Part shown: positions 20,295 to 42,654 of the stretch, in pieces
Position numbering within the stretch: position 1 is the stretch's first letter
Layout of the letters: every line of letters begins with the position of its first letter
Assembly: GCF_024298765.1 (NCBI RefSeq)
Contig: NZ_CP101210.1
DNA: 64,000 nt
From: Escherichia coli
GTDB lineage: Bacteria > Pseudomonadota > Gammaproteobacteria > Enterobacterales > Enterobacteriaceae
Direction: 5' to 3' (one strand)
Translations under genes and position numbers: made by a program
The notes under the pieces: generated by a model
What the model was told of the DNA's origin: nothing
Databases searched by the model: none
The model's input: only the letters and a program-made list of their open reading frames with translations

Positions 20295-20388
20295 GAGATC
20301 GATGCCTGACACGTCTTATCAGGCTACAACCGTGTCGCATCCGACAAGGCATCAGATCCCAATTCATTCCTGGAGCAGGAGTTATGTC

Positions 20389-25670: not shown

Positions 25671-26365
25671 TGCAGATCCTCAAAGTGATCGGCCTGTTGA
25701 TGGAGTATCCGGACGAGCTGTTGTGGGAATGTAAGGAGGACGCGCTGGCGTTGATCCGCCGCGACGCACCGATGCTCACCGATTTTGCACTCGACCTGCT
25801 CAACGCGCCGCTGCTGGATAAACAGGCCGAATGGTGTGAAGTGTTTGACCGCGGGCGCACCACGTCGCTGCTGCTGTTTGAACATGTTCATGCCGAGTCC
25901 CGCGATCGCGGCCAGGCAATGGTGGACCTGCTGGCGGAGTATGAAAAGGTCGGTCTGCAACTGAATTGTAGGGAACTGCCCGATTATCTACCGCTGTATC
26001 TGGAGTATTTAAGCATACTTCCGGACGATCAGGCGAAAGAAGGATTACTCAACGTTGCGCCGATCCTCGCCCTGCTTGGCGGACGCTTAAAACAACGCGA
26101 GGCACCGTGGTACGCGTTATTTGACGCCCTGTTGCAACTGGCAGGAAGCCCTCTATCAAGTGACAGTGTCACAAAACAGATTCGCAGTGAAGAGCGTGAC
26201 GACACCCGCCAGGCGCTGGATGCGGTGTGGGAAGAAGAACAGGTGAAGTTTATTGAAGATAACGCCACGGCGTGTGACAGCTCGCCGCTTAATCAATATC
26301 AGCGACGCTTTAGCCAGGATGTCGCGCCGCAGTATGTCGACATCAGTGCGGGAGGTGGGAAATGA
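25670..26365 (+). CDS. narW: Nitrate reductase Z assembly chaperone
   Basis: 231-aa ORF; NarJ-like; translationally coupled between narY and narV. Confidence 0.9.
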
Positions 26366-27042
26366 TTCAGTATCTGAACGTCTTTTTTTACGATATCTAC
26401 CCGTACTTGTGTGGCACGGTTTTTATCCTTGGAAGCTGGCTGCGCTACGATTACGGGCAGTATACCTGGCGTGCCGCCTCCAGCCAGATGCTGGATAAAC
26501 GCGGGATGGTGCTATGGTCGAACTTGTTCCATATCGGCATTCTGGGGATCTTCTTCGGTCATCTGTTCGGCATGTTAACGCCGCACTGGATGTACGCGTG
26601 GTTTCTGCCGGTGGCGGTAAAACAGCAGATGGCGATGATCCTCGGCGGAATATGCGGGGTATTGACGCTGATTGGCGGTGCGGGGCTACTGGTGCGTCGT
26701 TTAACAAATCCGCGTATCAGGGCGACGTCTTCTGGTGCGGATATCCTGATCCTCGCCATTTTGTTAATTCAGTGCATTCTTGGGTTAACCACCATTCCTT
26801 TTTCAGCACAACATCCGGACGGCAGTGAAATGATGAAGCTGGTGGGCTGGGCGCAAAGCATTGTCACTTTCCAGGGCGGTGCATCTACGCATCTTGATGG
26901 TGTCGCCTTTATATTCCGCGTTCATCTGGTGCTTGGAATGACCATCTTCCTGCTCTTCCCGTTCACCCGACTGGTGCATGTCTGGAGCGCGCCGTTTGAG
27001 TACTTTACTCGTCGGTATCAGATTGTGCGTTCGCGGCGTTAA
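26362..27042 (+). CDS. narV: Respiratory nitrate reductase Z gamma subunit (cytochrome b)
   Basis: 226-aa ORF; 5-TM heme-b subunit. Confidence 0.92.
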
Positions 27043-27121
27043 TTCTCACGCGGGCCGGACAGCCCTTCGCTCTCCGGCCACTTGCAGGCTATGATAGTTC
27101 TCCAGCCACAGGAGAACATTA

Positions 27122-28015
27122 ATGAAACCGCAGGTTTACCACGTCGATGCTTTTACCTCTCAACCGTTTCGCGGCAATTCTGCCGGTGTTGTTTTCCCCG
27201 CCGATAATCTCAGTGAAGCGCAAATGCAGCTTATCGCCCGCGAGTTAGGTCATTCGGAAACTGCTTTTCTGCTGCACAGCGACGACAGCGATGTGCGCAT
27301 CCGCTACTTTACGCCAACGGTTGAAGTTCCGATTTGTGGTCACGCGACAGTAGCTGCGCACTATGTACGTGCAAAGGTGTTAGGTTTAGGAAATTGCACG
27401 GTCTGGCAAACATCGCTGGCAGGAAAACACCGCGTGACTATCGAAAAGCATAACGATGATTATCGTATTTCGCTGGAACAAGGTACGCCGGGCTTTGAGC
27501 CACCGCTGGAAGGTGAAACATGTGCGGCGATTATCAACGCGCTTCATCTCACTGAAGACGATATTCTGCCAGGCTTACCAATTCAGGTGGCAACCACAGG
27601 ACACTCAAAAGTGATGATCCCACTGAAACCGGAAGTGGATATCGACGCCCTTTCGCCTGACCTTAATGCGCTGACCGCTATCAGCAAACAGATTGGCTGC
27701 AATGGTTTCTTCCCGTTCCAGATCCGCCCAGACAAAAACGAAACCGACGGTCGTATGTTCTCGCCTGCGATTGGTATTGTGGAAGATCCGGTGACCGGCA
27801 ATGCCAATGGCCCGATGGGTGCATGGTTGGTACATCACAACGTATTATCCCACGATGGCAACGTGTTGCGTGTTAAAGGCCATCAGGGGCGCGCATTGGG
27901 GCGTGATGGTGTAATTGATGTGACGGTGACAATTCGAGATAACCAACCGGAGAAAGTTACCATTTCCGGCACGGCGGTGATTCTATTCCATGCTGAATGG
28001 GCCATTGATTTTTGA
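27122..28015 (+). CDS. yddE: PhzF-family isomerase-like protein
   Basis: 297-aa ORF; PhzF/DapF-like fold. Confidence 0.88.
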   Translation: MKPQVYHVDAFTSQPFRGNSAGVVFPADNLSEAQMQLIARELGHSETAFLLHSDDSDVRIRYFTPTVEVPICGHATVAAHYVRAKVLGLGNCTVWQTSLAGKHRVTIEKHNDDYRISLEQGTPGFEPPLEGETCAAIINALHLTEDDILPGLPIQVATTGHSKVMIPLKPEVDIDALSPDLNALTAISKQIGCNGFFPFQIRPDKNETDGRMFSPAIGIVEDPVTGNANGPMGAWLVHHNVLSHDGNVLRVKGHQGRALGRDGVIDVTVTIRDNQPEKVTISGTAVILFHAEWAIDF

Positions 28016-28021
28016 TGCCGT

Positions 28022-28100
28022 TGCCTGATGCGCTTCGCTTATCAGGCCTACAACCGGACTAATGTAGGCCGGATAAGGCGTTTACGCCACATCCGGCAAC
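28022..28100. repeat. REP elements (BIME-like pair) between yddE and nhoA
   Basis: Two palindromic units, gcctgatgcgcttcgcttatcaggcctac and gtaggccggataaggcgtttacgccacatccggca, matching the REP consensus. Confidence 0.75.
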
Positions 28101-28110
28101 CTGACATAAA

Positions 28111-28956
28111 TTATTTTCCCGCCTCCGGGTGCGTATCAAACGCCGCCATCACCAGCGCTAACTCATCCACAGTAAAGCCATGTTTCGCATCATCTACGCC
28201 CAGACCAAACTGTTCCTGCATCACGGCATATAACGACGCCACATCTGGTAGATTTCGCTGCTCAACTGCGTGCCCATTTTCATAATGGGTAAAATGAAAA
28301 TTGGTCAGCGTTAGCTTGCCACCGTCCGGCAAATGGCGACACATCAGCAAATGATGGCGAAAATGCGACTGCGGCCAGTGCGCCGACCAGAAATTGCCCA
28401 TCACATAATCGTTTTGTTGCTGCTCGCAGAGATCAAAACGGTACATCGACTGCCAGTGCTGATGATGATTAAACTGCAACACCCAATCATCACCCTCCTG
28501 TAACAACCGATACTCTCCGTGTGGCGTGATCTGCACGAGATCGGGAACTAAACGAATCGGCGCGGTTAGCGTCTGTCCACCGAAACCGACATCAGCAATC
28601 CATTTTTCCCCTTCCAGTTCCACCAACAACAAACGATGGGTGCGCGGCGGTAATGCTGGCGGATTTGATAACACTACGCGCCCTAACAAGCTGCGAACGT
28701 TAAACCCCAGCTCGCGTAACACCCGCTCAAACACGCCATTCTGCTCAAAACAGTAACCGCCACGATGGGCTGTCACCAGTTTCTCTTCCAGCGATTGATC
28801 ATCAAGCTGTATTTCCCTCGGCAGCAAAACGTCGAGGTTTTCAAACGGAATAGTGCAATTGTGTTTCAGGTGCAATGCACGCAGCGTATCAATATTGACC
28901 GCAGCAGCTCCCGACCAGTTAATACGGGCAAAATAATGATTCAGAATGGGCGTCAT
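28111..28956 (-). CDS. nhoA: Arylamine N-acetyltransferase / N-hydroxyarylamine O-acetyltransferase
   Basis: 281-aa ORF; NAT-family Cys-His-Asp enzyme. Confidence 0.92.
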   Translation of the reverse strand: MTPILNHYFARINWSGAAAVNIDTLRALHLKHNCTIPFENLDVLLPREIQLDDQSLEEKLVTAHRGGYCFEQNGVFERVLRELGFNVRSLLGRVVLSNPPALPPRTHRLLLVELEGEKWIADVGFGGQTLTAPIRLVPDLVQITPHGEYRLLQEGDDWVLQFNHHQHWQSMYRFDLCEQQQNDYVMGNFWSAHWPQSHFRHHLLMCRHLPDGGKLTLTNFHFTHYENGHAVEQRNLPDVASLYAVMQEQFGLGVDDAKHGFTVDELALVMAAFDTHPEAGK

Positions 28957-29130
28957 CAGGCGTTTCCCTTAGTGGTTTTCTCAACTTATAACCTGGAATA
29001 GGCGCCGCACCGGCTATTTTGTGCGATCGCGGACATGCATCACGTTCGCAAATCGCCAATCCCGTTAATTTCGTTACTTATTGCGTTACGAGCTACGCTT
29101 TTAAAACACCCTTCATAGCGAGGCGATATC

Positions 29131-29700
29131 GTGAGCCAATTCATTCCCGTCGAATTACACCATGCCAGCCGTCTGTTAAATCATGGCCCAACTGTCTTGA
29201 TCACCAGTTTCGATGAGCAATCCCAGCGGCGTAACATTATGGCTGCAGCCTGGTCAATGCCGGTGGAGTTTGAACCTCCACGCGTGGCGATTGTGGTAGA
29301 TAAGTCGACATGGACCAGGGAGTTGATTGAGCGTAACGGTAAATTTGGCATCGTTATCCCAGGCGTTGCAGCGACTAACTGGACGTGGGCAGTGGGAAGT
29401 GTATCTGGGCGTGAAGAGGATAAATTTTATTGCTATGGCATTCCGGTGGTGAAAGGTCCGGTGCTTGGTTTGCCACTTGTTGAAGAGAAATGTCTGGCGT
29501 GGATGGAGTGCCGATTGCTACCAGCGACTTCCGCGCAAGAGAAATACGACACGCTGTTTGGCGAAGTGGTATCAGCAGCGGCAGACGCACGGGTATTTGT
29601 CGAAGGCCGCTGGCAGTTTGATGATGATAAGCTCAATACGTTGCATCATTTAGGCGCTGGCACGTTTGTTACCAGCGGCAAGCGTGTTACGGCAGGTTAA
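29131..29700 (+). CDS. yddH: Flavin reductase-like domain protein
   Basis: 189-aa ORF. Confidence 0.88.
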   Translation: MSQFIPVELHHASRLLNHGPTVLITSFDEQSQRRNIMAAAWSMPVEFEPPRVAIVVDKSTWTRELIERNGKFGIVIPGVAATNWTWAVGSVSGREEDKFYCYGIPVVKGPVLGLPLVEEKCLAWMECRLLPATSAQEKYDTLFGEVVSAAADARVFVEGRWQFDDDKLNTLHHLGAGTFVTSGKRVTAG

Positions 29701-29703
29701 GCA

Positions 29704-29931
29704 TTACATGCTGTAACCGGGTTTCTTTATCAAAGCCTCCATTTGGGGCTCGATTTCGGCATCCCAGATAGCTTGCCAAGATTCTGGTTGAATCTGCTGT
29801 AGAGAAATGCTTATCGAGCTATCTTTACTGTTCAGATGGCGAATAATAACGTCGGTAATATCTGCAGCAAGTGCTGCTTTTTGTTGTTCGTCCAGTTCAC
29901 GCGGAAAACATTTAATGTCTATGTGCGGCAT
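29704..29931 (-). CDS. pptA: Tautomerase PptA (4-oxalocrotonate tautomerase family)
   Basis: 75-aa product from the ATG at 29931 ([21 protein letters not shown]...), with Pro at position 2 as the catalytic N-terminal residue after Met removal. Confidence 0.88.
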
Positions 29932-30236
29932 GATTGTGCTCCTTTTGAAAGATGTCAGTAAAATTAACACACGTTGTGAATGTCGTGTGTCCGGTAATGC
30001 GTTTTTACGGCAATAATGCCTACTTGAAATTGTACATATTTGTACTACACACTTTTAAATAAAGCGCCAATGAAAACGTTAACTTGCAGAATATATTCTT
30101 CGCCAACATGCCATTAAGAAAACATCAAGTTCCCGGCTTGCCAATTTGTTAACGCCCATTATAGTTATTCTTGCCCTCACTAAAAATTTTCATCCGTAAT
30201 TACCCCCAATAAAAATCCATTCTGGAGACGCTTAAG

Positions 30237-32213
30237 ATGCAGCTTAATCATATCGTTAAAAGTCTGCTAATAACGGGATTATTCACCACCAGTTCTTTAC
30301 CTCTCCTCGCGGCGGAAGCTCCTAAAGACGCCACCGCAGCCACACAACAAGCAAACAATTTACTCTACAACCAGTTGCCGTTTGCCGATAACACTGACTT
30401 TACTGATGCCCATAAAGGTTTTATTGCCCCTATCCCTCAAGACGTGATTAAGGGCGAACAAGGGAATGTTATCTGGGATCCACAACATTACGCTTTTATC
30501 AAAGAAGGCGATAAAGCCCCTGATACGGTGAATCCGAGTTTATGGCGTCAGGCGCAACTGATAAATATCAGCGGGTTATTCGAAGTAACTGAAGGTGTCT
30601 ATCAGATTCGCAATCTCGATCTATCAAATATGACCATCATTGAAGGCAAAGAGGGTATTACCGTCGTTGATCCCCTTGTTTCAGCAGAAACAGCCAAAGT
30701 GGGTATGGATCTCTATTACAAAAATCGCGGCAAAAAACCGGTAGTGGCGGTTATCTATACACACAGTCATGTCGATCACTACGGTGGTGTTCGTGGCGTA
30801 ATTGATGAAGCTGACGTTAAATCAGGCAAAGTTAAAATCTATGCGCCAGCCGGATTTTTGGAGGAAGCCGTTTCCGAAAACATCATGGCTGGCAATGTTA
30901 TGAGCCGACGAGCCAGTTATATGTATGGCAACTTATTGAAACCTGATGTTAAAGGCCAGGTGGGGGCTGGACTGGGAACGACTACTTCAGCAGGAACAGT
31001 CACGTTGATTGCTCCTACTAACTACATCACCAAAACCGGACAAATAGAAACTATTGACGGGTTGACTTATGATTTCCTGATGGCGCCAGGTTCTGAAGCG
31101 CCTTCTGAAATGCTGTGGTTTATTGAAGAAAAGAAACTGATCGAAACCGCTGAAGATGTCACGCACACCCTTCATAACACCTATTCGCTGCGTGGGGCTA
31201 AAATTCGCCAACCGCTGCCGTGGTCAAAATATATTAATGAAGCTCTCAATTTGTGGGGTGATAAAGCCGAGATTATTCTCGCTCAACATCACTGGCCAAC
31301 CTGGGGCAACGATAACGTGGTCAAACTGCTTAAAAGCCAGCGTGATTTGTATCGTTACATCAATGATCAAACTCTGCGCATGGCAAATCAAGGGATGACC
31401 CGTGATGAAATTGCCGCAAACTTTAAACTTCCCTCTTCACTGGCTAACACCTGGGCGAATCGCGGCTATTACGGTTCGGTAAGTCATGACGTGAAAGCAA
31501 CTTACGTGCTTTATCTCGGCTGGTTTGATGGTAACCCCGCGACGCTTGATGAACTGCCGCCAGAAGAAGGCGCAAAAAAATTCGTCGAGTATATGGGCGG
31601 TGCTGATGCCATTTTACAGAAAGCCAAACAGGATTATGACCAGGGTAATTTCCGCTGGGTTGCCCAAGTTGTTAGTAAGGTGGTGTTTGCCGATCCAAAC
31701 AACCAGGCAGCGAGAGATCTGGAAGCTGATGCGCTTGAGCAGTTAGGCTATCAGGCTGAATCTGGGCCGTGGCGTAATTTCTATCTCACTGGCGCACAGG
31801 AATTGCGTAATGGTGTACAAAAATTACCAACACCAAATACTGCCAGCCCAGACACCGTGCGTGCGATGACGCCGGAGATGTTCTTTGATTATCTTGCCGT
31901 CCATATTAATGGTGAGAAAGCGGCAGATGCCAAAACCGTGTTGAATTTCGATTTTGGTGAAGATGGCGGCACCTATAAAGTGGAGCTTGAAAATGGTGTT
32001 CTCAATCATACAGCTGGTGTAGAGGCTTCGGATGCTGATGCCACTATCACTCTGTCTCGTGATGTATTGAACAAAATTGTACTGAAAGAAGAGACGCTGA
32101 AAGAAGCCACGGCCAAAGGAGATGTCAAAATTACTGGCAATGCGGAAAAACTCAACGAGCTGTTAGGTTATATGGATAATTTTGAATTTTGGTTCAATAT
32201 AGTGACACCATAA
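30237..32213 (+). CDS. Secreted MBL-fold alkyl/aryl-sulfatase-like protein (SdsA1/YjcS family)
   Basis: 658-aa ORF; N-terminal signal peptide; metallo-beta-lactamase motif THSHVDHYGG; C-terminal SCP2-like region; not part of the K-12 gene order at this position as I recall it. Confidence 0.8.
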   Translation: MQLNHIVKSLLITGLFTTSSLPLLAAEAPKDATAATQQANNLLYNQLPFADNTDFTDAHKGFIAPIPQDVIKGEQGNVIWDPQHYAFIKEGDKAPDTVNPSLWRQAQLINISGLFEVTEGVYQIRNLDLSNMTIIEGKEGITVVDPLVSAETAKVGMDLYYKNRGKKPVVAVIYTHSHVDHYGGVRGVIDEADVKSGKVKIYAPAGFLEEAVSENIMAGNVMSRRASYMYGNLLKPDVKGQVGAGLGTTTSAGTVTLIAPTNYITKTGQIETIDGLTYDFLMAPGSEAPSEMLWFIEEKKLIETAEDVTHTLHNTYSLRGAKIRQPLPWSKYINEALNLWGDKAEIILAQHHWPTWGNDNVVKLLKSQRDLYRYINDQTLRMANQGMTRDEIAANFKLPSSLANTWANRGYYGSVSHDVKATYVLYLGWFDGNPATLDELPPEEGAKKFVEYMGGADAILQKAKQDYDQGNFRWVAQVVSKVVFADPNNQAARDLEADALEQLGYQAESGPWRNFYLTGAQELRNGVQKLPTPNTASPDTVRAMTPEMFFDYLAVHINGEKAADAKTVLNFDFGEDGGTYKVELENGVLNHTAGVEASDADATITLSRDVLNKIVLKEETLKEATAKGDVKITGNAEKLNELLGYMDNFEFWFNIVTP

Positions 32214-32227
32214 ATTTACTGCATACC

Positions 32228-32250
32228 GGGCAGGTATCCTGCCCTTTTTT
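32228..32250 (+). terminator. Rho-independent terminator after the sulfatase-like gene
   Basis: Hairpin gggcagg-tatc-ctgccc followed by tttttt. Confidence 0.75.
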
Positions 32251-32307
32251 GGTTAAAAAATGGCTGAACGAAGAAAAACGCATCACTCATGGAAAACCCG
32301 CCGCGAT

Positions 32308-33357
32308 ATGGTTATTCGCGGCATGACGATTAGTTTGCCATGGTTTGCTTTTATCAATGTCAGTTTTGCATTGATAATTTTGCTGCGCCGTGTTCTGTTT
32401 AATGACCTTACTCCACCCTGGTTAAATGAAAAAAGCCTTATACATTCTATTGATATATCTGCAACGGGTATTCTGCTAATTTGCAGTGGTTTACTACTCA
32501 TCCCTCGGCAAAAAACATTACCTATCCAGGTGCTATTAGTTGCCCTGAGCCTGCTATGGTCATGGTGTAGTTATCACTTTATTGCGTACTGGACGCTGCA
32601 GTTTGCTTATCCACTATGTGTATTATTAATGCTTAGTGGCGTTGTCGCACTTTATTTCCATACCCCATCATTGCTCGCATTTGTCATTCCCTTATGGTTC
32701 ACCACTCCAATAGCGAGTCTTATGCTTAATCAACAGATCAATATTCATTTTGCTGTTGTATGGTGTATTTTTTCACTGGCGCTATATGGTGGGCGACTCA
32801 TTTTGTTACGTTGGTTTGAAGAAGCATGGGTACAAAACAGTTATAACAACCAGTTAATTAATCGCCTTGATGCATTAGCACATCGTGATCCTTTAACTGG
32901 GATAGCAAACCGACGTGCAATGAACAGTATCTTACACGACGCGATAGATAACGGCGGGTCATTTGCTCTTATTATGCTGGATGTCGATTTTTTTAAACGT
33001 TACAACGACACTTACGGGCATCCTGCTGGGGATCGTTGTCTAATACAAGTTGCCGACGCTCTACAGCGTTCAACTCGCCAGTCGGAGGATGTTGTTGTCC
33101 GTTATGGTGGCGAAGAGTTTGCCATCATACTTTTTAATGCAACATTGCCGGAAGCAGAGACGGTAGCAGCCAGAGTGAAGCAAGAACTTAAACTGGCAGC
33201 TATCCCACATCAGGCATCTGCTGTTAATGCATTCGTTACGGTTAGTCAGGGGATTACCTGTTCTGCTCCCGCAAAAACGGCTGAACAAATTATTTCAGAT
33301 GCCGACGCTGCGTTATACCGGGCGAAAGAAAGTGGGCGAAATCGATGGGCTTTATAA
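32308..33357 (+). CDS. Membrane-anchored diguanylate cyclase (GGEEF), accessory
   Basis: ORF track gives 32260..33357 (365 aa); about 200 aa of polytopic membrane N-terminus followed by a GGDEF domain with an RYGGEEF active site and an I-site-like RxxD. Start uncertain because the ATG at 32260 directly abuts the upstream terminator; 32308 (MVIRGM...) is an alternative. Confidence 0.8.
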   Translation: MVIRGMTISLPWFAFINVSFALIILLRRVLFNDLTPPWLNEKSLIHSIDISATGILLICSGLLLIPRQKTLPIQVLLVALSLLWSWCSYHFIAYWTLQFAYPLCVLLMLSGVVALYFHTPSLLAFVIPLWFTTPIASLMLNQQINIHFAVVWCIFSLALYGGRLILLRWFEEAWVQNSYNNQLINRLDALAHRDPLTGIANRRAMNSILHDAIDNGGSFALIMLDVDFFKRYNDTYGHPAGDRCLIQVADALQRSTRQSEDVVVRYGGEEFAIILFNATLPEAETVAARVKQELKLAAIPHQASAVNAFVTVSQGITCSAPAKTAEQIISDADAALYRAKESGRNRWAL

Positions 33358-33430
33358 GCATTAGGGGACTGGACAGATTACGTCTCTCCTCGCTTAACAA
33401 GGGCTGACGGAGGGTAATAATTGTCTATAG

Positions 33431-33982
33431 CTATCTTCTTAGCGATGTCTTTCTGGTATCACATTGGATCGGTGCAATTATTTTTCCTTTAATACCCATT
33501 ATGTTAAGAAATTCAGAAACAGCTGTAATCTCATTGGTTTTTTCATTCGTCTTGATCTTCCAAGGAATCTGACTGTGCATTATTGAGAACACACTAATAA
33601 CGTGAATCGCTCCCTTGCGACGACTCTTGTCATAAGAGTACCGGAGCGTTTTTCCATCAATTGCAATGACGTCTTTATCATCTGAAGAATGGCAGTCAAG
33701 CATCCAGTTAATAAAGCACTCATGAAATTTTGCAGGACTGATACAGGATACAACTCTGGCAATGGTATCGTGAACAGGAATACCATTATCAAAATCACCA
33801 TATTGCTTCAAAAAATCGAGATGTGTTTCCCCAAAATCCTCTATATCTTCCCAGCCTTCTGCACCCGAAATAACGGCACAAATAGTCAACAGTAGAATAT
33901 CCGATAATTTATGTTCCACTTTCCAGGCTTGTCTGTAATCGGGGATAATAGAAATATGTTCCATCAATTTTTTAAGTTCCAT
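33431..33982 (-). pseudogene. ydcC: Truncated H-repeat-associated (ISAs1-family transposase-like) gene, N-terminal fragment
   Basis: 183-aa ORF matching only the N-terminal half of the roughly 378-aa H-repeat protein; the remainder is missing where the DGC gene begins. Confidence 0.7.
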
Positions 33983-34222
33983 TTTGTTCTCCTTAATTAT
34001 GTAAGGAGTATTTGATCATGTATAAGCAATAAAAAACAGCTTTAGATAATGAGGAATATCTCAATTTTTAAACATAAAATGCGAATTATTTAGTACAAAA
34101 AAGCAGCGTTACGTGATCTTTCCATGGAAAAGAGAGTAATACACTGATTTTTAACGCAGATTGCCAGTGCTACCAACACTGACAATCTGCTCACCACAAG
34201 CAACTAACAGAGGTAGTTAATC

Positions 34223-34552
34223 ATGGCTGAACACGATATTACGCCAGAAGTCGCCATTTCCAAAACACAGCGCCGCTATAAAGTCGGCTATGTCAGAGCC
34301 CGCCACATAAACAGCAAAACCTACATGACCACGTACTACTCACGACACCCCAGCCTGAACCTTAAGGGCGACTGGCTGAAAGAGGCCGGATTTGATACCG
34401 GACGGGGTGTCACGGTGAAGATTTCGGAGGGGTGCCTGACCATCATCGCTGACAGTGACGAGGTGCAGGAACTGCGGGAGGAACTTTATCAGGTTAAACA
34501 GGTGGTTAAGGGGATGCGGAACGGGATGTTTAGTGTGCTGAACGAGAATTAA
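34223..34552 (+). CDS. SymE-family type I toxin-like protein (AbrB/SpoVT-fold)
   Basis: 109-aa ORF with RBS agagg; core LKGDWLKEAGFDTGRGVTVKISEGCLTIIA closely parallels E. coli SymE as I recall it ([30 protein letters not shown]). Confidence 0.65.
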   Translation: MAEHDITPEVAISKTQRRYKVGYVRARHINSKTYMTTYYSRHPSLNLKGDWLKEAGFDTGRGVTVKISEGCLTIIADSDEVQELREELYQVKQVVKGMRNGMFSVLNEN

Positions 34553-34602
34553 ATAATAAAAAAGCCGGGGAGATTTAAAATCTTCCCGGCTTTCTTTATC
34601 AT

Positions 34603-34905
34603 CTAAAAAGGTAATAATCCTCTAATAGGAGAAAATTTTGTAATATCAATACCTTGTAATTTAAAGTAATTAAAAGCATCTTCTATATTGGAAAACGCAC
34701 TAATTTCTTCAGTTGCATAATCTTCGAACACTTCCATTTTATTTTCTGGTATTTTGAAAAAATAGGTATTGTATTTTTCATCCTGTTTTTTAATGGCATA
34801 TTGGAAAAAATAACTTTCACCATTTATTTCCTTTATCTCATCAAAACCTCTAACCTTACCATTCTCTATAGCAACAATTAATTTTTCAATAGACAAATCA
34901 ACCAT
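34603..34905 (-). CDS. Putative Rhs toxin immunity protein
   Basis: 100-aa acidic, AT-rich ORF; start overlaps the toxin-tip stop by 8 nt; strong RBS (gagga). Confidence 0.6.
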   Translation of the reverse strand: MVDLSIEKLIVAIENGKVRGFDEIKEINGESYFFQYAIKKQDEKYNTYFFKIPENKMEVFEDYATEEISAFSNIEDAFNYFKLQGIDITKFSPIRGLLPF

Positions 34906-35312
34906 CTATATCTATCCTCACCATTGTCCCATCAGAACGTTTAATATTTATATGAGGCAAAGAACCATGCCCTGTGCCTTTATGGTCATCATGACCATAT
35001 ACACGACCAGTATTAGAATCAATAGGGTAACCTTTCCTATAACGGACAGTACCATCTCTTTTCTTAAATTGTTCCATCTTATGTTTTTTTCTAATACCGG
35101 CGGCATCCTGCGAACCGATCCCTCTTACTTTTTGAGCATCAGGAAAGGCCTCCATCAATAAATCATGGGCTTCCTGTTTTGATTTAACTGTGACAACGGT
35201 TCCTTGAGGCCCCTCTCGCAAAGATTTCGCGTTTTTGGAACATGCAGTCAGTCCCAGCGGATCGATCCAAGAGAGCGGATTCGGCGCGTATTGGTAGAGG
35301 TTTATTCCCCCC
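34898..35312 (-). CDS. Rhs C-terminal segment (core end INLYQYAPNPLSWIDPLGL plus variable toxin tip), out of frame with the Rhs core ORF
   Basis: Reading frame B on the minus strand gives GGINLYQYAPNPLSWIDPLGL followed by about 117 aa of His-rich variable tip (YGHDDHKGTGHGSLPH); it is joined to the core only if the G7 run at 35307..35313 is read as G6. Confidence 0.65.
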
Positions 35313-38300
35313 CGCTAACCCTATCGGATCCGTTACCATGAACCGCCCGACATCCGGATCATAGTACCTGTGCAGATTGTAATGCAGTCCCGTTTCCCTG
35401 TCGAGGTACTGTCCCTGGTAGCGCAGGTTCTGCGCCACCCCGCCGTGGTCCTTCTCCTGTATCGTGTTACCCCAGACCTGATACCCCGTCTCCCACACGA
35501 TTTTCCCGTCACTGTCCGTCATCTCTTCCGGCGCGCCGTTCACATCCGTGTGAAAATACAGTATCCGGTTCGGGCCCTCTTTGCCCGCCTTATCCACCCG
35601 CGCCAGCGGTTCATAACTCCCCGGGTCCCTGTAGATGTACAGGCTGTCTGTTCCCTCCGGCCTGCTCTCCTGCGCCAGCCGCATTCCGTCCCATAAAAAT
35701 GCCGTCCGGTTGTACGGTTTACCGTCAGGGCTGATGTGCTGTTTTTCCGTCCGCCTCCCCAGCGCATCGTACACATACCGGTACGTTCCCCGCGCTGTCG
35801 TCACTTCCACCATCCGGTGTTCCGCATCATAACGGTAACTCTGCGTGCCGCTCCGCCCCTCCTTTTCCACCGCACGGCCAAATTCGTCGTAACGGTAGTG
35901 CACACCACGGTAAGACATCAGCCGGTTGAACGGCACCACGCTGTTTTCTGCCGTGGCCCTTTCCCCCGCGCGCCGCCCCAGCAGGTTTCCCGCCGCGTCG
36001 TACTGCCAGCTCGCCAGATACCCCTCATCCTCCGAGCGGCACGCCGTGATGCGCCCCGTGGGGTCGTAGAAGTAATCCGTTTCCCCCCGCCGGCTGTGCC
36101 GCGTCTTCAGCAGTTCATCCTCGCCACTGTAGCTGTACTGCCGGTCCGTGAACGTCTCCGGTACCACCCCGCGCATCCCGCTGTATGTCTCCCTGCGCTT
36201 CAGCCGCCCGGCGGGGTCGTAAAGCTGCCGCGTGCTCAGTCGCCCCTGACTTCTGAGCACTTCACGGTGCAGGGCGTCACGAGTGAACTCGCTGATGACC
36301 TCCCGGTCCAGATTTATCTGCTGGAGATGGCCGCTGCCGTAGTACAGATGACGCTGCGTTCTGCCGTCCGGAAAGGTGGTGGCTGTCCGGTTGCTGAGTT
36401 CATCGTACTGATGGGTCAGGACGCCCTGCGCCGTCTCCTCAGTCAGCATCCGCCCCAGTCTGTCGTAACTGAAACGGATAATCTCCGGTGCGTCTGTTTC
36501 CCCGGCATCCGACCGTCGGCGGCGGATTTCCAGTAACTGGTCTGCCGCATCATGGACGTATTCCGTACGGCTATCGGCTGTCTCCTTTGCCGTGAGCCGG
36601 CCCGCCGCATCACGTGCCAGCCGGTGGCGGATTTCACCGCCCCGGTCCCCGGTGAACACCACTTCCGTGACCGCGTTCAGCGCGTTGTAGCGGTACGTCT
36701 GGCGGCAGCCGTCCGGATTTATCTGCTCCGCCAGACGGTCCAGCACGTCATGGCGGAACCGGTAGCTTTCTCCGTTCTCGTTTGTCAGCGTGACCAGACG
36801 CCCGTAAGCATCGTACCCGAACGCCGTCCTGCGCCCCGTCGCGTCTGTCCGGCTGCGCACCCGGCCCTGCCCGTCCCGCTGCCAGCGCGTTATCCTCCCC
36901 ATCGGGCTGGTGTACTTCACCAGCCTGCCCGCCGCGTCCGACTGGTAATTCACCGTGCGGCCGTCCGCCAGTATCACCTCCGTCAGGTGGCCGCTGTCGT
37001 CATACCCGTAGCGCGTGCTGTGGCTCTGCGCGTCTGTCATCCGTATCAGCCGCGTGCGTTCGTCGTAGAACCAGGCCGTCTGCGAGCCGGAACAGTCCGT
37101 GTGCCGCATGAGCTGCCCGTCTTCGTTCCACTGAAGGTATTTATTCCCCCCGCGCGCATCGGTTATCTGCACCACCTGGCCGTGGCGGTCATACTGATAC
37201 CGGGTGTTCTGCTGCAGCGGGTCGGTCACCGCAAGAAGATTGCCGCGTTCATCGTACTCACAGCACCAGCTGTTCCCCGCCGCGTCCACCTCCGTTTCCG
37301 GCTGGTGCCACACCGGGTGCCACTGTGTCTGTGCCACCCGCCCCAGCGGGTCGTGCGTCTCCGTGATATGCCCCTGCCGGTCATACACATAGCGCCATTT
37401 GCCGCCCTGCGCATCGGTCATTCCCAGTAACAGCCGTTCTTCGTCGCTCCAGCGGAACGTCGTCACCTGCCCGGCTTCGTCCTGGTACGCCGTCACCTGA
37501 TTCTGCGCGTCCCACTGATGATAACGCGTGCGCCCCAGCCCGTCCGTCACGCACAGCCTGCGTGACGCCAGGCTCCACGCCAGCCGGTACTGTTCACCGC
37601 TGTCCGTGTGGTGCCCCGTCACCCGCCACGCTGCGTCATCCGGGCCTTCATACCAGCTCCACTGGTAATAATACCCTTCGCCGCCCGGCTGGCGGTGCAG
37701 GGTCATGCAGTGGTTTTCGTCGTAAGCAAACTCGCGCAGCAGGTGTCCCGTGCTGTCGTACACGCCGTTCAGGTCGCCGGCCTCGTCATAGCGGTAACGA
37801 CGCAGCAGTAAAGGAGCCGTCTCAGGGAAATGCTGATAAATCTGTGTCACCCGCCGGGGATGCGCCGCCAGTTCATAATGCAGACGGATGCACGGACGCT
37901 GCTGTTCACCGCTGATTTGCGTGATGCGCCCCAGCTCGTCGTAGTACAGATTCAGACAGTTGCTGTTGCGGTCGCCCAGCATTTTCAGCCGCTGGCGCTG
38001 CGGGTGATGCGGGTCGGCTTCAAACAGAAAAAACTGCCCGTCATCGCTGCTGATAAGCCAGTGCCCCTGCTCACCCCGCCTTACCGCCAGTCCTTCGCCG
38101 GGGCTGTAAAACCCGCTCCCCGGCAGCACGGCCTCCATATCCAGGCGTCGCCCCATGCCCGACACAAAGGTCATGCAGTTTTCGTCAGCAGTACCCGGCG
38201 TGCGCCCGAGGCTGACTTCATACATCACGCTCCAGCCCTGCCCGAACATCCCTTCCGTGCGGTCGTCACGACTGCTGTACACGCGCTGCCAGTCCAGCGG

Positions 38301-39560
38301 AAAGTGGCCCGGCAGACTGAAATCGAAGTCATCGTCATCGGCCAGATATTTGGCTCCGGTGGCGGCATTGACCGGATGCGGAAGGGCACTGATGGCCTTC
38401 TGCGTCATCACCCCCATCCCGACACTGGCAGCAAAACAGGCGATTTTAGAAAGCATTTTGCCCGGGCGAAGAAACATCAGCGCCACGGTTGCCACCAGGG
38501 TTATCTGCGACCTGCCGCTTCTGATATCCCTGACCACCAGTAACGGACCGCCAATGCGGACATCCGGTGACACAAACGCCCCGTTCCCCGGCTCATTCAC
38601 CACCCTGGCCTCGCAGGTGCAGCGTGCCCCGCTGCGTGCCGCCGGCTGGCTGTTGATACGCACATCCCGCGCGCCTTCCGCGATATATTCCGCTGCGGGC
38701 GGTTCATCATCGCCTTTGAACAGATTACTGATGCTGCCAATAACCGCATTCACTCCCTGAAAGGCGGTTTCCAGCATACCGTCCGGACTCAGCAGGTTAA
38801 GGGCCGTTCCCAGGGGGTCATCCAGAAAGGCGGCTTTTTTTTGTGCGAGAAACTGCGTCAGTGAGGAGGGATGTTTATGGCAGTCGATTTTATCGTCAGG
38901 GGTCGGGGTGGAGCCCGGGGCCGCACTGGCCACGGTGGGCTGCCATAGTTCCGACACAAAATGTGTCACGCCATCCACCATTTCAGAACGCCCTTCTTCC
39001 GTACTGAGCTGGTCGTGCAGCGCCCGGGACATCAGCACAGGCCCTGTCACCGGGTTAACCGCCAGGGCTATGGCCCCCGCCATTTCCAGATATTCCCCGG
39101 CCACATCCAGGAACGTTCTGGCATCCTCCTGACGCTGCGCTTCTTCCTGTTCCGCCTTCGCCTGCGCCTCCTGCGCCTCAATGTCCTGCCGCGATGCCGC
39201 AGTCGCCGCGGCCCGCGCGGCAGGTTTGCTGTTGATCCATGTGTCGCCAGAGCCGGTGAGGATGTAACCTTCAATCTGAGGCGGGAAAAGCATATTTGCG
39301 AGGTCTGAACAGACTTCGCTGACCGTGTCTGTCACGCCGGTGTACACCATCGCCACACCCGCCACAAAACCGGTCAGCACGACGGCCGTGCACCCCATCG
39401 TGATCCCCACTGACGCCGCCAGTAACGAGGTTGTGCCGACAATGAGGGCATCAATAACGACATTTGCGGCCACCTCCAGCACCGCCCCCAGCACATCTGC
39501 CATAAACGACGTATGCAGCAGGGCATCACCCTGCCTTGCCGCCCAGAATGCCTCTTCCAT
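35184..39560 (-). CDS. Rhs-family T6SS effector core (prePAAR motif, TM helices, PAAR, YD repeats), as the ORF in the present frame
   Basis: 1458-aa ORF; N-terminus MEEAFWAARQGDALLH matches the prePAAR AARxxDxxxH motif; hydrophobic helices follow; literal PAAR motifs; numerous YD/RHS repeats; core end RYYDPDVGRFMVTDPIGLAGG; after the G-run the frame runs 41 unrelated codons to a stop at 35184. Occupies the K-12 rhsE position by synteny. Confidence 0.85.
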   Translation of the reverse strand: MEEAFWAARQGDALLHTSFMADVLGAVLEVAANVVIDALIVGTTSLLAASVGITMGCTAVVLTGFVAGVAMVYTGVTDTVSEVCSDLANMLFPPQIEGYILTGSGDTWINSKPAARAAATAASRQDIEAQEAQAKAEQEEAQRQEDARTFLDVAGEYLEMAGAIALAVNPVTGPVLMSRALHDQLSTEEGRSEMVDGVTHFVSELWQPTVASAAPGSTPTPDDKIDCHKHPSSLTQFLAQKKAAFLDDPLGTALNLLSPDGMLETAFQGVNAVIGSISNLFKGDDEPPAAEYIAEGARDVRINSQPAARSGARCTCEARVVNEPGNGAFVSPDVRIGGPLLVVRDIRSGRSQITLVATVALMFLRPGKMLSKIACFAASVGMGVMTQKAISALPHPVNAATGAKYLADDDDFDFSLPGHFPLDWQRVYSSRDDRTEGMFGQGWSVMYEVSLGRTPGTADENCMTFVSGMGRRLDMEAVLPGSGFYSPGEGLAVRRGEQGHWLISSDDGQFFLFEADPHHPQRQRLKMLGDRNSNCLNLYYDELGRITQISGEQQRPCIRLHYELAAHPRRVTQIYQHFPETAPLLLRRYRYDEAGDLNGVYDSTGHLLREFAYDENHCMTLHRQPGGEGYYYQWSWYEGPDDAAWRVTGHHTDSGEQYRLAWSLASRRLCVTDGLGRTRYHQWDAQNQVTAYQDEAGQVTTFRWSDEERLLLGMTDAQGGKWRYVYDRQGHITETHDPLGRVAQTQWHPVWHQPETEVDAAGNSWCCEYDERGNLLAVTDPLQQNTRYQYDRHGQVVQITDARGGNKYLQWNEDGQLMRHTDCSGSQTAWFYDERTRLIRMTDAQSHSTRYGYDDSGHLTEVILADGRTVNYQSDAAGRLVKYTSPMGRITRWQRDGQGRVRSRTDATGRRTAFGYDAYGRLVTLTNENGESYRFRHDVLDRLAEQINPDGCRQTYRYNALNAVTEVVFTGDRGGEIRHRLARDAAGRLTAKETADSRTEYVHDAADQLLEIRRRRSDAGETDAPEIIRFSYDRLGRMLTEETAQGVLTHQYDELSNRTATTFPDGRTQRHLYYGSGHLQQINLDREVISEFTRDALHREVLRSQGRLSTRQLYDPAGRLKRRETYSGMRGVVPETFTDRQYSYSGEDELLKTRHSRRGETDYFYDPTGRITACRSEDEGYLASWQYDAAGNLLGRRAGERATAENSVVPFNRLMSYRGVHYRYDEFGRAVEKEGRSGTQSYRYDAEHRMVEVTTARGTYRYVYDALGRRTEKQHISPDGKPYNRTAFLWDGMRLAQESRPEGTDSLYIYRDPGSYEPLARVDKAGKEGPNRILYFHTDVNGAPEEMTDSDGKIVWETGYQVWGNTIQEKDHGGVAQNLRYQGQYLDRETGLHYNLHRYYDPDVGRFMVTDPIGLAGGNKPLPIRAESALLDRSAGTDCMFQKREIFARGASRNRCHS

Positions 39561-39578
39561 GTCCCGTTCCCTGTGTGA

Positions 39579-40031
39579 TTAATTCGTCCCGGCTTCCTGC
39601 CGCATCCTGAAGCGCAGATTCTTTTTAATTTCAGCCCAGCGCGTCATATCTGCCGGGGTCAGCGGTGTGGTTCGGGCGTAGGTGAAGGCCATCATGACCC
39701 GCTCACCCGGCAATACAAATGCCACCTGACACTGGTACACCTGCTCGTTACCCCGGAGAAACTGGCTCTGTATTTCCAGTCCTTCTTCACCGTCATTAAT
39801 CCCCACCCGTGTTACCTGAACGGGCGTGTAGTGAAGATCCTTTACCTGTTTCTCCAGTTTTTTCATTTGCTGTTCAATCTGGGAGGCTAATTCGTCTCCT
39901 TCCTGCATCTGGCCCCGGCTGATAATGAGTGCAGCGTCGGGATCGCTGAGGCGCAGCATATTAATAGTACTGTCCTGAATAATATTCCCGGAAAAAGTTA
40001 CAACAGTTTCATTGAGATAATACTCCGTCAT
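39579..40031 (-). CDS. DUF1795 (Eag-family) effector chaperone
   Basis: 150-aa ORF immediately upstream of the prePAAR Rhs gene; size and position typical of Eag chaperones. Confidence 0.7.
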   Translation of the reverse strand: MTEYYLNETVVTFSGNIIQDSTINMLRLSDPDAALIISRGQMQEGDELASQIEQQMKKLEKQVKDLHYTPVQVTRVGINDGEEGLEIQSQFLRGNEQVYQCQVAFVLPGERVMMAFTYARTTPLTPADMTRWAEIKKNLRFRMRQEAGTN

Positions 40032-40081
40032 AATGATATGAGTCCTTTTAAATTAATAAATTATTTAATGATGGTTTTTGT

Positions 40082-42076
40082 TTATTTTTTAGTCATGAAG
40101 GCGACATCTATCGCCAATTGAAGGGCTGTTTTTTCCGATGTTCCTGGCGGAAGTATATCTGCCGCCCTGTTATTCATATTTAAATCAAGCTGACCTGATT
40201 GTGTATTTATCTTTCCATTTTCTGTTGCAGTAATATTAAAATTCTTACAGGTTATATTAAATATTCCGTCACTGGTCATTTGCAGGATAGTGTTCCCACA
40301 ACTAAGAATTATGGAATCTCCCGCAGCAAGGCGTAAATTCTGTACGGCCTGAATCGTTTTATTTTGTCCGGCAAGGGAGGTATCATCCATCTGAACTGTA
40401 AGAGAACGTTCCTCACCAATTATCGCTGTTTCTGTTTTATCAATGACTTTAAGGCGATTATTGCCCACCCAGTGGCTTTCATTATTATTTACTTCAATGC
40501 GTTGATCTTTCTCGGCATGCAACCAGATTTCTTCTCCGCCAGTTTTATCCTCAAAACGCAAGGCGTTAGCATTGGTCGGGCCGCCGCCGATAGTGTGGCT
40601 GTAAAACCCGCTTTGCGTCGCTGCGCCCGGTAGTCCCCACGGTGGCATGGTGTCCTGATTGTAGGTACGCCCAACGATTATCGGTAAATCCGGATCACCG
40701 TTTTTGAAATCCACCAGTACTTCCTGACCAATGCGCGGGATCTGAATGCCACCGAATCCTTTACCCGCCCACGGATAACTGACACGGACCCAGCAGGAAC
40801 TATTTTCGTCATTCTTACCGTAACGATCCCAGCCAAACTGAACTTTCACCCGGCCATATTTATCTGTCCAGATTTCCTGCCCTGCCGGGCCGGTGACGAT
40901 GGCGCTCTGCGGGCCTTTAGTGTGGGGTTTGCTCAGGGTTCGTTGTGGGCGGTAAACTTCGCTGGTGGGATGCAGTTCAAAGCTGGTTGAGTAAGAGAAA
41001 TGCTGCTCCTGGCCGCTGTGTTGCGCATTGTCCTGTATAAATAGCGTGGTCTGTACCAGCAGATATTCCCGGTTCACTTCGGCTGTCGGATAGTTTTCCA
41101 GGGTGAAGGTAAAACCTGTCATCAGGGTACGAATATTGCCGCTGCCCTGTACCCGACTACCTGGGCTACGCTGTTCTTCCATGCGAATGCGTGTCAGCAT
41201 TTCACCTTCACTCTTTGTGAAGTAATCTCCCGGCCATTCGTAGTGCTCATATTCAGCAAGGCCGGTTTCACGCGGATTAGCCACGGTGCTCTTCAGCAGT
41301 GAACGCGGCTTCATAAAGTCGAAATCATTCAGCACCCACTGTCCGCTGCGCAGACTTTCATTTGCTGTGATGGTATGGATAAACTCCTTGTCCAGTTTCA
41401 GCCCTTTCTGGTAATAACACACCAGCGGCGAATCTGCGCATGCCTTGTGGACATTAATGGCATCAGCCAGCACTAACGTGTGACTGTTCTCGCTGTGCTC
41501 AAACCACCAGTAGATACCCCACTCCTGCATCAGGCGCTGAACAAAATCGAAATCTGTTTCACCGTACTGCACCTGCCAGGCGCGAGTCGGATAATTTTCC
41601 ACCAGTCGTTTTTCCACTGGCCAGGGGTACTCATCCAGTACCTCATCCAGGATCTCCACCACGTTTTTATTCTGAAACGCTTTGTAGTCACTAGTGTGGG
41701 TCAGTATTTTTAACCACGGTTCGAGCCGCAGTTCATACACCACCGAACGTCCTTGATGACCAGCCACGCGTGCCGCCGTCACCAGCCCGCTGATATAACG
41801 TTTTCCGCCGCCATCCAATTCGATATTGACGCACAGATCTTTGCCCACCATCGGTTTGAGCTGCAGGTTGGCTGCGGGGGAAACATAGCCCAGGTTCAGG
41901 ATGTCAGGAGTTTTTAATTTAATAGAATAAGTAAATAGTTCCCCTACTGTTTCTGTACCCCCTAAGCTTGCAAACAGTAACATTCCATCAGGAACTGCGC
42001 TGCCGCTCAAAGTCACGTTATGTGTACCCGATCCAGTTAGTGCGCCGGATGGATAATCTGTAGCTGCAAAACTCAT
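40082..42076 (-). CDS. vgrG: Type VI secretion spike protein VgrG
   Basis: 664-aa ORF; gp27/gp5-like architecture; directly precedes the Eag-Rhs genes. Confidence 0.85.
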
Positions 42077-42297
42077 AATTAATCCTTTTAACTAGAAATG
42101 GATAAGTGCTAATAAGAAATCTTACAGAGAATAAAATATGCAATATATTCGTAGCTGGCATAAAACATCTCAATACTTATGCGTGCTACTGAAGATACTA
42201 TCAACCATATATGCCTTGAAGAATGCACCGTCATGTTAACCTGGTGGAAACATTCACCTAAAGTACATTAATAAAACTAATAAAATTATTTAATTTG

Positions 42298-42654
42298 TTA
42301 TTTGATATGATTATCATCAAGTCTTAAAATACGTTCTCCGGTTCTAATTATGCTAAAACCATAGTATTCTTTTTTACTTCCGGAAGAGAGCATATATTTC
42401 CCTATATACATAACATCTGAAGATAGCTCACTTATATCAATACATACGGGTTCGAACTGACCTGTCACTCTTTTCAACTTTATTGCATTGCCATATTTAC
42501 CTTCATATAAAACATAATTTGAAATAATATTCCCATCGTCTGGTTTTGAACAAATCTGTCCGTCTTGCAAATATACACTACCGGGTAACAATGGGCGAAC
42601 ATAATCACCAACAGTGCATCCCGACAAAAAGAAAAACAAAAAGAATCTCTTCAT
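42298..42654 (-). CDS. Small lipoprotein of unknown function (candidate immunity protein)
   Basis: 118-aa ORF; signal peptide with lipobox FLSGC; AT-rich; start overlaps the stop of the upstream HExxH gene (ATGA). Confidence 0.6.
   Translation of the reverse strand: MKRFFLFFFLSGCTVGDYVRPLLPGSVYLQDGQICSKPDDGNIISNYVLYEGKYGNAIKLKRVTGQFEPVCIDISELSSDVMYIGKYMLSSGSKKEYYGFSIIRTGERILRLDDNHIK

Follow-up and report, generated by a model that had tools for sequence, protein, structure and literature searches.

Gene content of the locus

We analyzed a 64,000-nucleotide stretch of the Escherichia coli contig NZ_CP101210.1 (RefSeq assembly GCF_024298765.1), hereafter the window, in which two plus-strand genes that encode a putative alkyl/aryl-sulfatase and a membrane diguanylate cyclase (DGC) lie between pptA and a block of Rhs-associated genes and are followed by a truncated H-repeat gene. 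An earlier reading of the letters and open reading frames (ORFs) of the window, made without database searches and referred to here as the sequence-only reading, had interpreted the two genes as an accessory insertion that truncated the H-repeat gene. The evidence presented below suggests that both genes are resident at this locus and that K-12 has lost them.

The three ORFs described in that reading were recovered from the ORF list and encode 658, 365, and 183 amino acids (aa), respectively (Table 1). The chromosome of E. coli strain 13P477T is annotated in RefSeq and is 100% identical to the window over a 4.6-kb query. Its annotated gene order is pptA, alkyl/aryl-sulfatase, GGDEF domain-containing protein, ISAs1 transposase, SymE toxin, two hypothetical proteins, RHS protein, DcrB-related protein, and VgrG. 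The gene identities proposed previously, a sulfatase with a metallo-beta-lactamase (MBL) fold and a membrane DGC, were borne out by Pfam domains and sequence motifs. The two genes had also been described as plus-strand genes within an otherwise minus-strand block; the orientation of the two genes is as described, but the block is not uniform, as the symE-like gene is likewise encoded on the plus strand.

Table 1. Features of the pptA-Rhs region, given in window coordinates
Feature	Position	Strand	Basis
pptA (tautomerase), final gene of the core block in common with K-12	29704..29931	-	RefSeq annotation of the identical locus; K-12 homology ends at 30020
Sulfatase upstream region, not in K-12	30021..30236	+	K-12 breakpoint 30020/30021
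Putative MBL-fold alkyl/aryl-sulfatase with signal peptide, type III, 658 aa	30237..32213	+	Pfam, HSHVDH motif, PDB sequence matches
Terminator-like hairpin GGGCAGGTATCCTGCCC and T-run, just past the sulfatase stop	32228..32252	+	Consensus scan
Putative MASE5-GGDEF membrane DGC, 365 aa (349 aa from the RefSeq start at 32308)	32260..33357	+	Pfam, motifs, AlphaFold2
Diverged right-terminus relic of an H-repeat (ISAs1 family)	33368..33431	-	Alignment to right ends of the K-12 and EC476 ydcC elements
5' part of a ydcC-like H-repeat/ISEc1, outer inverted repeat kept	33432..34126	-	92% nucleotide identity to K-12 ydcC
Truncated H-repeat ORF, 183 aa	33431-33982	-	ORF list; Pfam DDE_Tnp_1_assoc
Variable Rhs island (context)	34223..42076	.	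RefSeq annotation of the identical locus
symE-like toxin gene	34223-34552	+	Pfam SymE_toxin, 1.8e-20
Rhs protein, 1458 aa	35184-39560	-	RefSeq annotation of the identical locus
DcrB-related gene	39579-40031	-	RefSeq annotation of the identical locus
VgrG	40082-42076	-	RefSeq annotation of the identical locus

Ancestry of the segment between pptA and the H-repeat

Comparison by blastn indicated that the window is collinear with K-12 from narU through pptA (positions 18966-30020), up to 10 bp past the ydcC stop codon. Homology restarts with the first 184 codons of ydcC and its upstream end (33432-34101; 92% identity), and no K-12 homology was detected between positions 34102 and 43429. Where the window carries the 3411 bp from 30021 to 33431, the corresponding place in K-12 is taken up by 595 bp, the 3' part of the ydcC element. 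The gene order in MG1655 is rhsE', ydcD, yncI', ydcC, pptA, yddH, nhoA, yddE, narVWYZ; pptA directly adjoins ydcC, which confirms the earlier statement that neither gene is present in K-12 at this position. At this locus within the 64-kb window, the strain encodes one DGC more than K-12.

These differences could be explained by the horizontal entry of a two-gene accessory cassette into a K-12-like locus, which would have cut the H-repeat gene in half. Such a model accounts for the absence of both genes from K-12 at this site, for their G+C content below that of the flank, for an H-repeat ORF that ends at 183 aa exactly where K-12 homology restarts, and for the restriction of the pair to only 8% of E. 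coli. It is contradicted by orthologs in the same interval of E. marmotae, E. albertii, C. koseri, and C. sedlakii. The chromosome of Citrobacter sedlakii carries, in order, narV, an autotransporter gene, nhoA, yddH, a sulfatase gene (92.6% aa identity), yncG, ansP, and yncE, with no DGC gene. In E. albertii, nhoA, yddH, pptA, and the sulfatase gene (94.4%) are followed by a symE/Rhs fragment and ansP; a DGC gene is lacking at the locus, where homology to the window ends at 32261. The C. koseri locus comprises narZYWV-nhoA-yddH-DGC-yncG (DGC 65% identical) without a sulfatase gene, and that of E. marmotae comprises nhoA-yddH-pptA-sulfatase-DGC (DGC 77% identical); both loci were assigned to species by exact-sequence protein cluster look-ups. 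The accession numbers of the two proteins are consecutive in E. whittamii, in entries of the clusters that contain E. ruysiae, and in E. marmotae, which suggests that the genes are also adjacent in the E. whittamii and E. ruysiae-containing clusters.

The divergence of both genes matches that of their flanks, which again argues against the cassette model. Identity to the window DGC falls with species distance, from 94% in E. whittamii to 82% in unclassified Escherichia spp., 79% in E. ruysiae, and the values given above for E. marmotae and C. koseri; homologs in Enterobacter, Lelliottia, Salmonella, and Hafnia are ~50% identical. The aa identity of the sulfatase (94.8% in E. marmotae, with E. 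albertii and C. sedlakii as above) is similar to that of the neighboring yddH (93.7% in E. marmotae, 94.2% in E. albertii, and 89.9% in C. sedlakii). At the nucleotide level, identities to the window of the flank, the sulfatase gene, and the DGC gene are 96.5%, 97.8%, and 99.6% in E. coli GN03139, 94.5%, 96.4%, and 96.4% in E. coli GF3-3, and 85.0%, 86.9%, and 79.0% in E. marmotae, such that divergence runs on without a jump across the K-12 breakpoint. Furthermore, neither direct nor inverted repeats bracket positions 30021-33431, and the ORF list contains no mobility gene (integrase or transposase) within them. With orthologs at the same site, continuous divergence, and no bracketing repeats or mobility genes, the segment does not have the attributes of a genomic island or an inserted accessory cassette.

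A 51%-identical MASE5-GGDEF homolog was also observed in Enterobacter cloacae (L097/L098), at a site flanked by feaB and the copper amine oxidase gene tynA and next to an hcp/Ntox44 cluster. This location suggests that the MASE5-GGDEF family has changed loci within the Enterobacteriaceae, and because it is not syntenic with the window, orthology based on synteny ends at Escherichia and Citrobacter.

Genomes without the two genes retain junctions that bear on how the genes came to be missing. The 1291-bp ydcC element of K-12 has a complete right terminus (CAGGGCAAGATTACG...), which adjoins the sequence corresponding to window position 30020. In E. coli EC476, the same complete H-repeat terminus was independently joined at 30306, which leaves the sulfatase gene with its upstream region and 23 initial codons; this remnant is 286 bp long and forms the start of the 3411-bp segment. 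The complete H-repeat end at both junctions reads CAGGG(C/A)AAGATTACG, and no matching target duplication flanks the K-12 ydcC element. In E. coli AF57, just the last 115 bp of the 3' end of the DGC gene are left beside yncG, and other E. coli carry an IS1 element or an internal stop codon in the sulfatase gene or an IS21 element in the DGC gene. Two junctions with intact ends of an insertion sequence (IS) at different points, one of them with a gene remnant, suggest deletions next to the IS. Recombination between IS copies would leave the same junction pattern, whereas insertion of the genes would not. Collectively, these observations make it very probable that K-12 represents a state derived by deletion at the H-repeat end and that the pptA-yncG interval of the window strain is ancestral in its gene content.

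The H-repeat beside the DGC gene likewise bears traces of its own decay and not of an incoming cassette. The truncated ORF has 92% nucleotide identity to the N-terminal half of K-12 ydcC and is labeled in RefSeq as an ISAs1 transposase that is frameshifted and incomplete at its C-terminus. The outer inverted repeat TGATCTTTCCATG is intact at 34114-34126, and a 64-bp relic of the right terminus, which begins 10 bp past the DGC stop codon, still lies between the DGC gene and the truncated ORF. This relic can be aligned to the right termini of the ydcC elements of K-12 and EC476, and the alignment contains the invariant AGATTACG; its local alignment score of 13 was not reached in any of 2000 shuffles (6.8 +/- 1.1). 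Truncation of the H-repeat by the two genes, as proposed in the sequence-only reading, is thus not what the sequence indicates: both the outer inverted repeat and a relic of the DGC-side end are kept, and an internal piece is lost. That loss amounts to ~530 bp, because the remnant in the window spans 759 bp and the complete K-12 element 1291 bp.

A functional ISAs1 element has a length of ~1291 bp, both inverted repeats, and a transposase of ~378 aa, and the H-repeat in the window is not of this kind. It resembles K-12 ydcC at rhsE (H-repeat/ISEc1, ISAs1 family) in its position at the edge of an Rhs element, in its 5' 695 bp (92% identical), and in the outer inverted repeat, but differs from it in the internal loss, the diverged relic on the DGC side, and a transposase that is a pseudogene. 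Downstream of the DGC gene, GF3-3 and an unclassified Escherichia sp. have this same flank, and E. marmotae has part of it. The exact junction between the DGC gene and the H-repeat in the window is common to 352 complete genomes, which suggests that it is an inherited state. No E. coli with a complete H-repeat beside the DGC gene, the presumed intermediate, was found among the matches sampled, a list dominated by other IS copies.

The order of rearrangements that we infer from these breakpoints begins with a Rhs/VgrG/H-repeat element that would have come to sit between the DGC gene and yncG. In K-12 and most other E. coli, deletions from the H-repeat (ISEc1) end would then have taken out the sulfatase and DGC genes; in the lineage of the window, the H-repeat would have decayed through internal deletion and both genes survived. 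What is inserted and variable at this locus is the Rhs/VgrG/H-repeat block beyond the DGC gene. In K-12, yncG and yncH separate ansP from rhsE. Both are missing from the window (region 42077-43970), and K-12 homology resumes on the ansP side only at 43971, save for a 122-bp match (77%) at 43430-43551. In the window lineage, yncG and yncH have been replaced by the Rhs/VgrG island.

Several observations weigh against vertical inheritance, or against parts of the scenario above. The G+C content of the sulfatase gene (45.7%) and the DGC gene (43.4%) is lower than that of the flank (52.6%), as is the G+C content at third codon positions (0.43 and 0.36 versus 0.51-0.64 in neighboring genes). This AT-richness leaves room for an old foreign origin of both genes prior to diversification of the genus. 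Because just 8% of complete E. coli genomes retain the pair, numerous independent events of loss, or of replacement by recombination, have to be assumed. The sulfatase gene of L016, an unclassified Escherichia sp., has 95.4% nucleotide identity to the window and the adjoining DGC gene 83.8%, a mosaic that points to a recombination breakpoint in the pair, either between the genes or inside them. The relic of the H-repeat terminus is only ~60-65% like the end of ydcC and may stem from a different, older copy; because it is far more diverged than the 5' part, the element may be a fusion of two H-repeat copies. Lastly, the final two codons of the DGC gene in GN03139 deviate from those in the window, GF3-3, E. 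marmotae, and L016, which suggests that the compact junction of the DGC gene with yncG in that strain may be secondary.

Considering the evidence on both sides, we assign a probability of roughly 0.85 to the interpretation that the sulfatase and DGC genes have been passed down vertically in the pptA-yncG interval of Escherichia and Citrobacter and are not an inserted cassette. The orthologs in the same interval, the divergence that matches the flanks, the lack of repeats and mobility genes, the two distinct junctions with complete IS ends together with a 5' remnant of the sulfatase gene in genomes without the pair, and the H-repeat relic leave the insertion model largely refuted and highly improbable.

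Predicted properties of the sulfatase and the DGC

The sulfatase has three Pfam domains that exceed their cut-offs: Lactamase_B (69.8 bits), Alkyl_sulf_dimr (212 bits; 5e-63), and Alkyl_sulf_C (151.9 bits; 1e-44). A THSHVDHYGG motif is located at residue 176, with HSHVDH at residues 179-184. The N-terminus MQLNHIVKSLLITGLFTTSSLPLLA|AEAP resembles a Sec signal peptide of 25 residues, and the solved chain of PSdsA (4nur) begins at aligned residue 26. Matches to five solved members of the type III family extend from end to end (E from 0 to 1e-189), with scores of 1192 bits for 7tl5, 1035 for PSdsA, 699 for YjcS (4pdx), ~640 for Pisa1, and 635 for SdsA1. Given that YjcS scores well below PSdsA and 7tl5, the sulfatase is a paralog of K-12 YjcS and not its ortholog. 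By domain and motif content, the protein groups with the type III MBL-fold alkylsulfatases SdsA1 of Pseudomonas aeruginosa (2cfu), Pisa1 (2yhe), PSdsA, and YjcS, with which it has in common an MBL domain, a dimerization domain, an SCP2-like C-terminus, the HxHxDH zinc motif, and an N-terminal signal peptide. These features point to export to the periplasm, where the protein would act as a binuclear-zinc enzyme that hydrolyzes alkyl sulfate esters to the alcohol and sulfate. A sigma-70-like site lies upstream of the gene at 30138-30165 (TTGCCA-16-TATAGT; 10 of 12 consensus positions), which is a pattern match only; the promoter scan as a whole was uninformative, with 13 sites versus 10.3 expected.

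The second gene encodes a protein with a MASE5 domain (PF17178; 150.8 bits versus a cut-off of 25.2; 5e-44; profile positions 2-192 of 192) and a GGDEF domain (PF00990; 1.4e-48) that covers the full profile. Active GGDEF DGCs are recognized by GG(D/E)EF with a preceding Arg and by metal- and GTP-binding residues, namely the D of LDxD, the N of YND, and the D of GHxxGD. The A-site, RYGGEEF, is intact at residues 281-287, as the sequence-only reading had noted, and the catalytic motifs MLDVDFFKRYNDTYGHPAGD are invariant in 69 homologs. By these features the protein is predicted to be an active DGC. Across the same 69 homologs, which extend down to 48% identity, ~80 alignment columns are invariant. 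A published table lists a MASE5-GGDEF protein as having no counterpart in MG1655 (PMC7232144 Table 3).

Hydropathy analysis indicated approximately six transmembrane helices, and an AlphaFold2 model likewise has six (pLDDT 85); the last of these extends as a long helix (residues 162-207) into a canonical GGDEF fold. Sequence comparison with the PDB returned GGDEF structures at E ~1e-12, and a fold search with the model returned mostly GGDEF domains. The best full-length match in both structure and sequence was ImcA of P. aeruginosa (8wcn), a membrane DGC with a solved full-length structure that likewise comprises a transmembrane helical bundle, a connecting helix, and a GGDEF domain. However, the TM-score is only 0.41 and the identity 23%, and it is the last helix and the GGDEF domain that account for the likeness; this match, the only full-length one, is too weak for an inference on the fold of MASE5.

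The canonical I-site, an RxxD motif that ends five residues upstream of GG(D/E)EF, is absent. In its place is RQSED, that is RxxxD, with the Arg one position too far, as in all 12 aligned orthologs of the DGC; ImcA carries RPLD where the window DGC has RxxxD. A Pantoea MASE5-GGEEF protein is also listed without RxxD (PMC8294551). By sequence, the protein does not belong with the I-site-regulated DGCs of the PleD/WspR/DgcX type, and because the canonical RxxD is missing, classical product inhibition at an I-site is unlikely. The DGC would thus reside in the inner membrane, where the six-helix MASE5 domain may relay a membrane or periplasmic cue through the long helix to a GGDEF domain that is probably competent for catalysis and that, as a dimer, would convert two GTP to cyclic di-GMP (c-di-GMP). 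Sequence and model together are consistent with a signal-regulated, dimerizing c-di-GMP synthase without classical product inhibition.

The start of the DGC gene is ambiguous. The ATG at 32260 is only 7 nucleotides past the T-run of the terminator and has no obvious Shine-Dalgarno sequence, and RefSeq places the start at 32308. The resulting 16-aa extension has a W-x-x-R-x-x-M-V pattern that is kept in 50%-identical Enterobacter homologs, and its last residues are modeled by AlphaFold2 as the beginning of the first helix.

Enteroaggregative and O104:H4 E. coli express an additional cyclase, DgcX, at a high level. DgcX was considered as an identity for this protein and rejected because the two differ in domain type, length, I-site, and genomic location. 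What they have in common is that both are GGDEF membrane proteins missing from K-12 whose GG(D/E)EF A-site is intact. However, DgcX, which is found in O104:H4, 55989, and enterotoxigenic E. coli (PMC4287979), begins with a MASE4-type region that also occurs in DgcT and CdgI and comprises ~270 aa and 8 transmembrane helices. Its RxxD I-site is intact, and its gene lies beside lambdoid prophage DNA, mostly at attB (PMC4287979, PMC10459773). The MASE5 domain of the window DGC comprises ~190 aa and six helices, the protein has RxxxD in place of RxxD, and its gene adjoins no prophage genes and occupies a syntenic, core-like position between pptA and the Rhs genes. That the two are the same protein is therefore next to impossible, and the earlier caution against such an assignment was justified.

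A pangenome survey of E. coli GGDEF/EAL genes by Povolotsky and Hengge in 2016 reportedly named two extra membrane DGCs, DgcX and DgcY. We take the latter to be a membrane-associated GGDEF protein found in a minority of E. coli and not in K-12, and to be the one of the two without a MASE4 domain; the window DGC (RefSeq protein WP_000236739.1) is presumably DgcY. The name DgcY was not among the source names in the DGC protein clusters that were looked up, and text searches of the literature for DgcY and MASE5 yielded no E. coli match. Of the NCBIfam models, only that of the GGDEF domain exceeds its cut-off with the window protein; none of the equivalogs for named E. coli DGCs does.

Whether the sulfatase and the DGC are linked can be evaluated from the arrangement and history of their genes. 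The hairpin past the sulfatase stop codon was identified by the consensus scan and has a 7-bp stem with 6 G-C pairs followed by TTTTTTGG. The position of this terminator-like hairpin between the genes and the occurrence of either gene without the other in Citrobacter species make it probable that the two are transcribed as separate units. It is conceivable that they nonetheless form one functional module, in which the sulfatase makes or removes a ligand of MASE5, such as an alkyl sulfate or long-chain alcohol, and thereby couples surfactant to c-di-GMP. Their adjacency and orientation are kept in E. coli, E. marmotae, and probably E. whittamii and the E. ruysiae-containing cluster, and the gap between them is short (46-94 bp). 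Nevertheless, such a module is very unlikely, given the strength of the hairpin between the genes, the presence of only the sulfatase in C. sedlakii and E. albertii and of only the DGC in C. koseri, the lack of a nearby sulfatase gene at the tynA-feaB locus in Enterobacter, and the very different rates at which the two proteins evolve.

Between E. coli and E. marmotae, the aa identity of the DGC is 77% (72% in MASE5 and 83% in GGDEF), and that of YddH and the sulfatase is 94% and 95%, respectively. The several-fold faster divergence of MASE5 relative to its neighbors, together with the persistence of the gene beside an alkylsulfatase gene, is the basis for a more specific and highly speculative suggestion: a circuit that senses surfactants or sulfated lipids, in which the substrate or product of the sulfatase is the MASE5 ligand and ties alkyl sulfates from the host or the environment to biofilm control. 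We regard this circuit as most improbable; if it were real, it would provide the first known signal for MASE5.

The Rhs island and the distribution of the two genes in E. coli

The Rhs island in the window has features of its own. The 1458-aa Rhs ORF ends ~40 aa past its DPxGL motif and overlaps by 38 nucleotides a 107-aa ORF on the same strand (34898-35221, minus), for which no Pfam or NCBIfam match was detected; a 100-aa ORF (34603-34905) follows. A frameshift may have separated the toxin tip from the core of the Rhs protein; the 100-aa ORF would be a candidate for the immunity gene. Region 34140-34552, flanked by the H-repeat relic and the Rhs tip, contains a symE-like type I toxin gene preceded by a long inverted repeat (GCAGATTGCCAGTG...CACTGACAATCTGC). 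Copies of symE also follow Rhs fragments in GF3-3, in E. albertii, and on a contig of an unclassified Escherichia.

At least 80% of the two-gene segment was detected in 438 of 5426 complete E. coli genomes (8%), and a further ~96 carry partial remnants only. Matches to the segment comprise 340 records at >=99% identity and 184 at 95-99%. In GN03139 and some other strains, the locus is compact (pptA-sulfatase-DGC-yncG-ansP) and has no Rhs element. The pair is thus ordinary and already annotated in hundreds of genomes.

This patchy distribution raises the possibility that the DGC is a decaying gene of no functional relevance in E. coli that is heading for loss. It has been lost from 92% of complete genomes, disrupted alleles exist (e.g., IS21 in the avian pathogenic E. 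coli [APEC] strain E956 and protein clusters truncated to 328 and 243 aa), and the protein evolves fast (77% identity versus ~94% for its neighbors). However, the DGC in the window is full length with all GGDEF catalytic motifs intact, the invariant columns noted above are kept across its homologs, and an identical 349-aa protein is encoded on at least 1000 contigs. Decay toward loss is therefore unlikely.

The locus shows Rhs-associated H-repeat elements eroding neighboring core genes through repeated adjacent deletions. For the pptA-yncG interval, the content of K-12 is very probably derived. Strains of the window type encode a predicted c-di-GMP synthase and a second putative alkylsulfatase without K-12 counterparts at this locus, and the extra synthase is worth recalling when models of the c-di-GMP network of K-12 are applied to strains of the APEC or extraintestinal pathogenic E. 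coli type.

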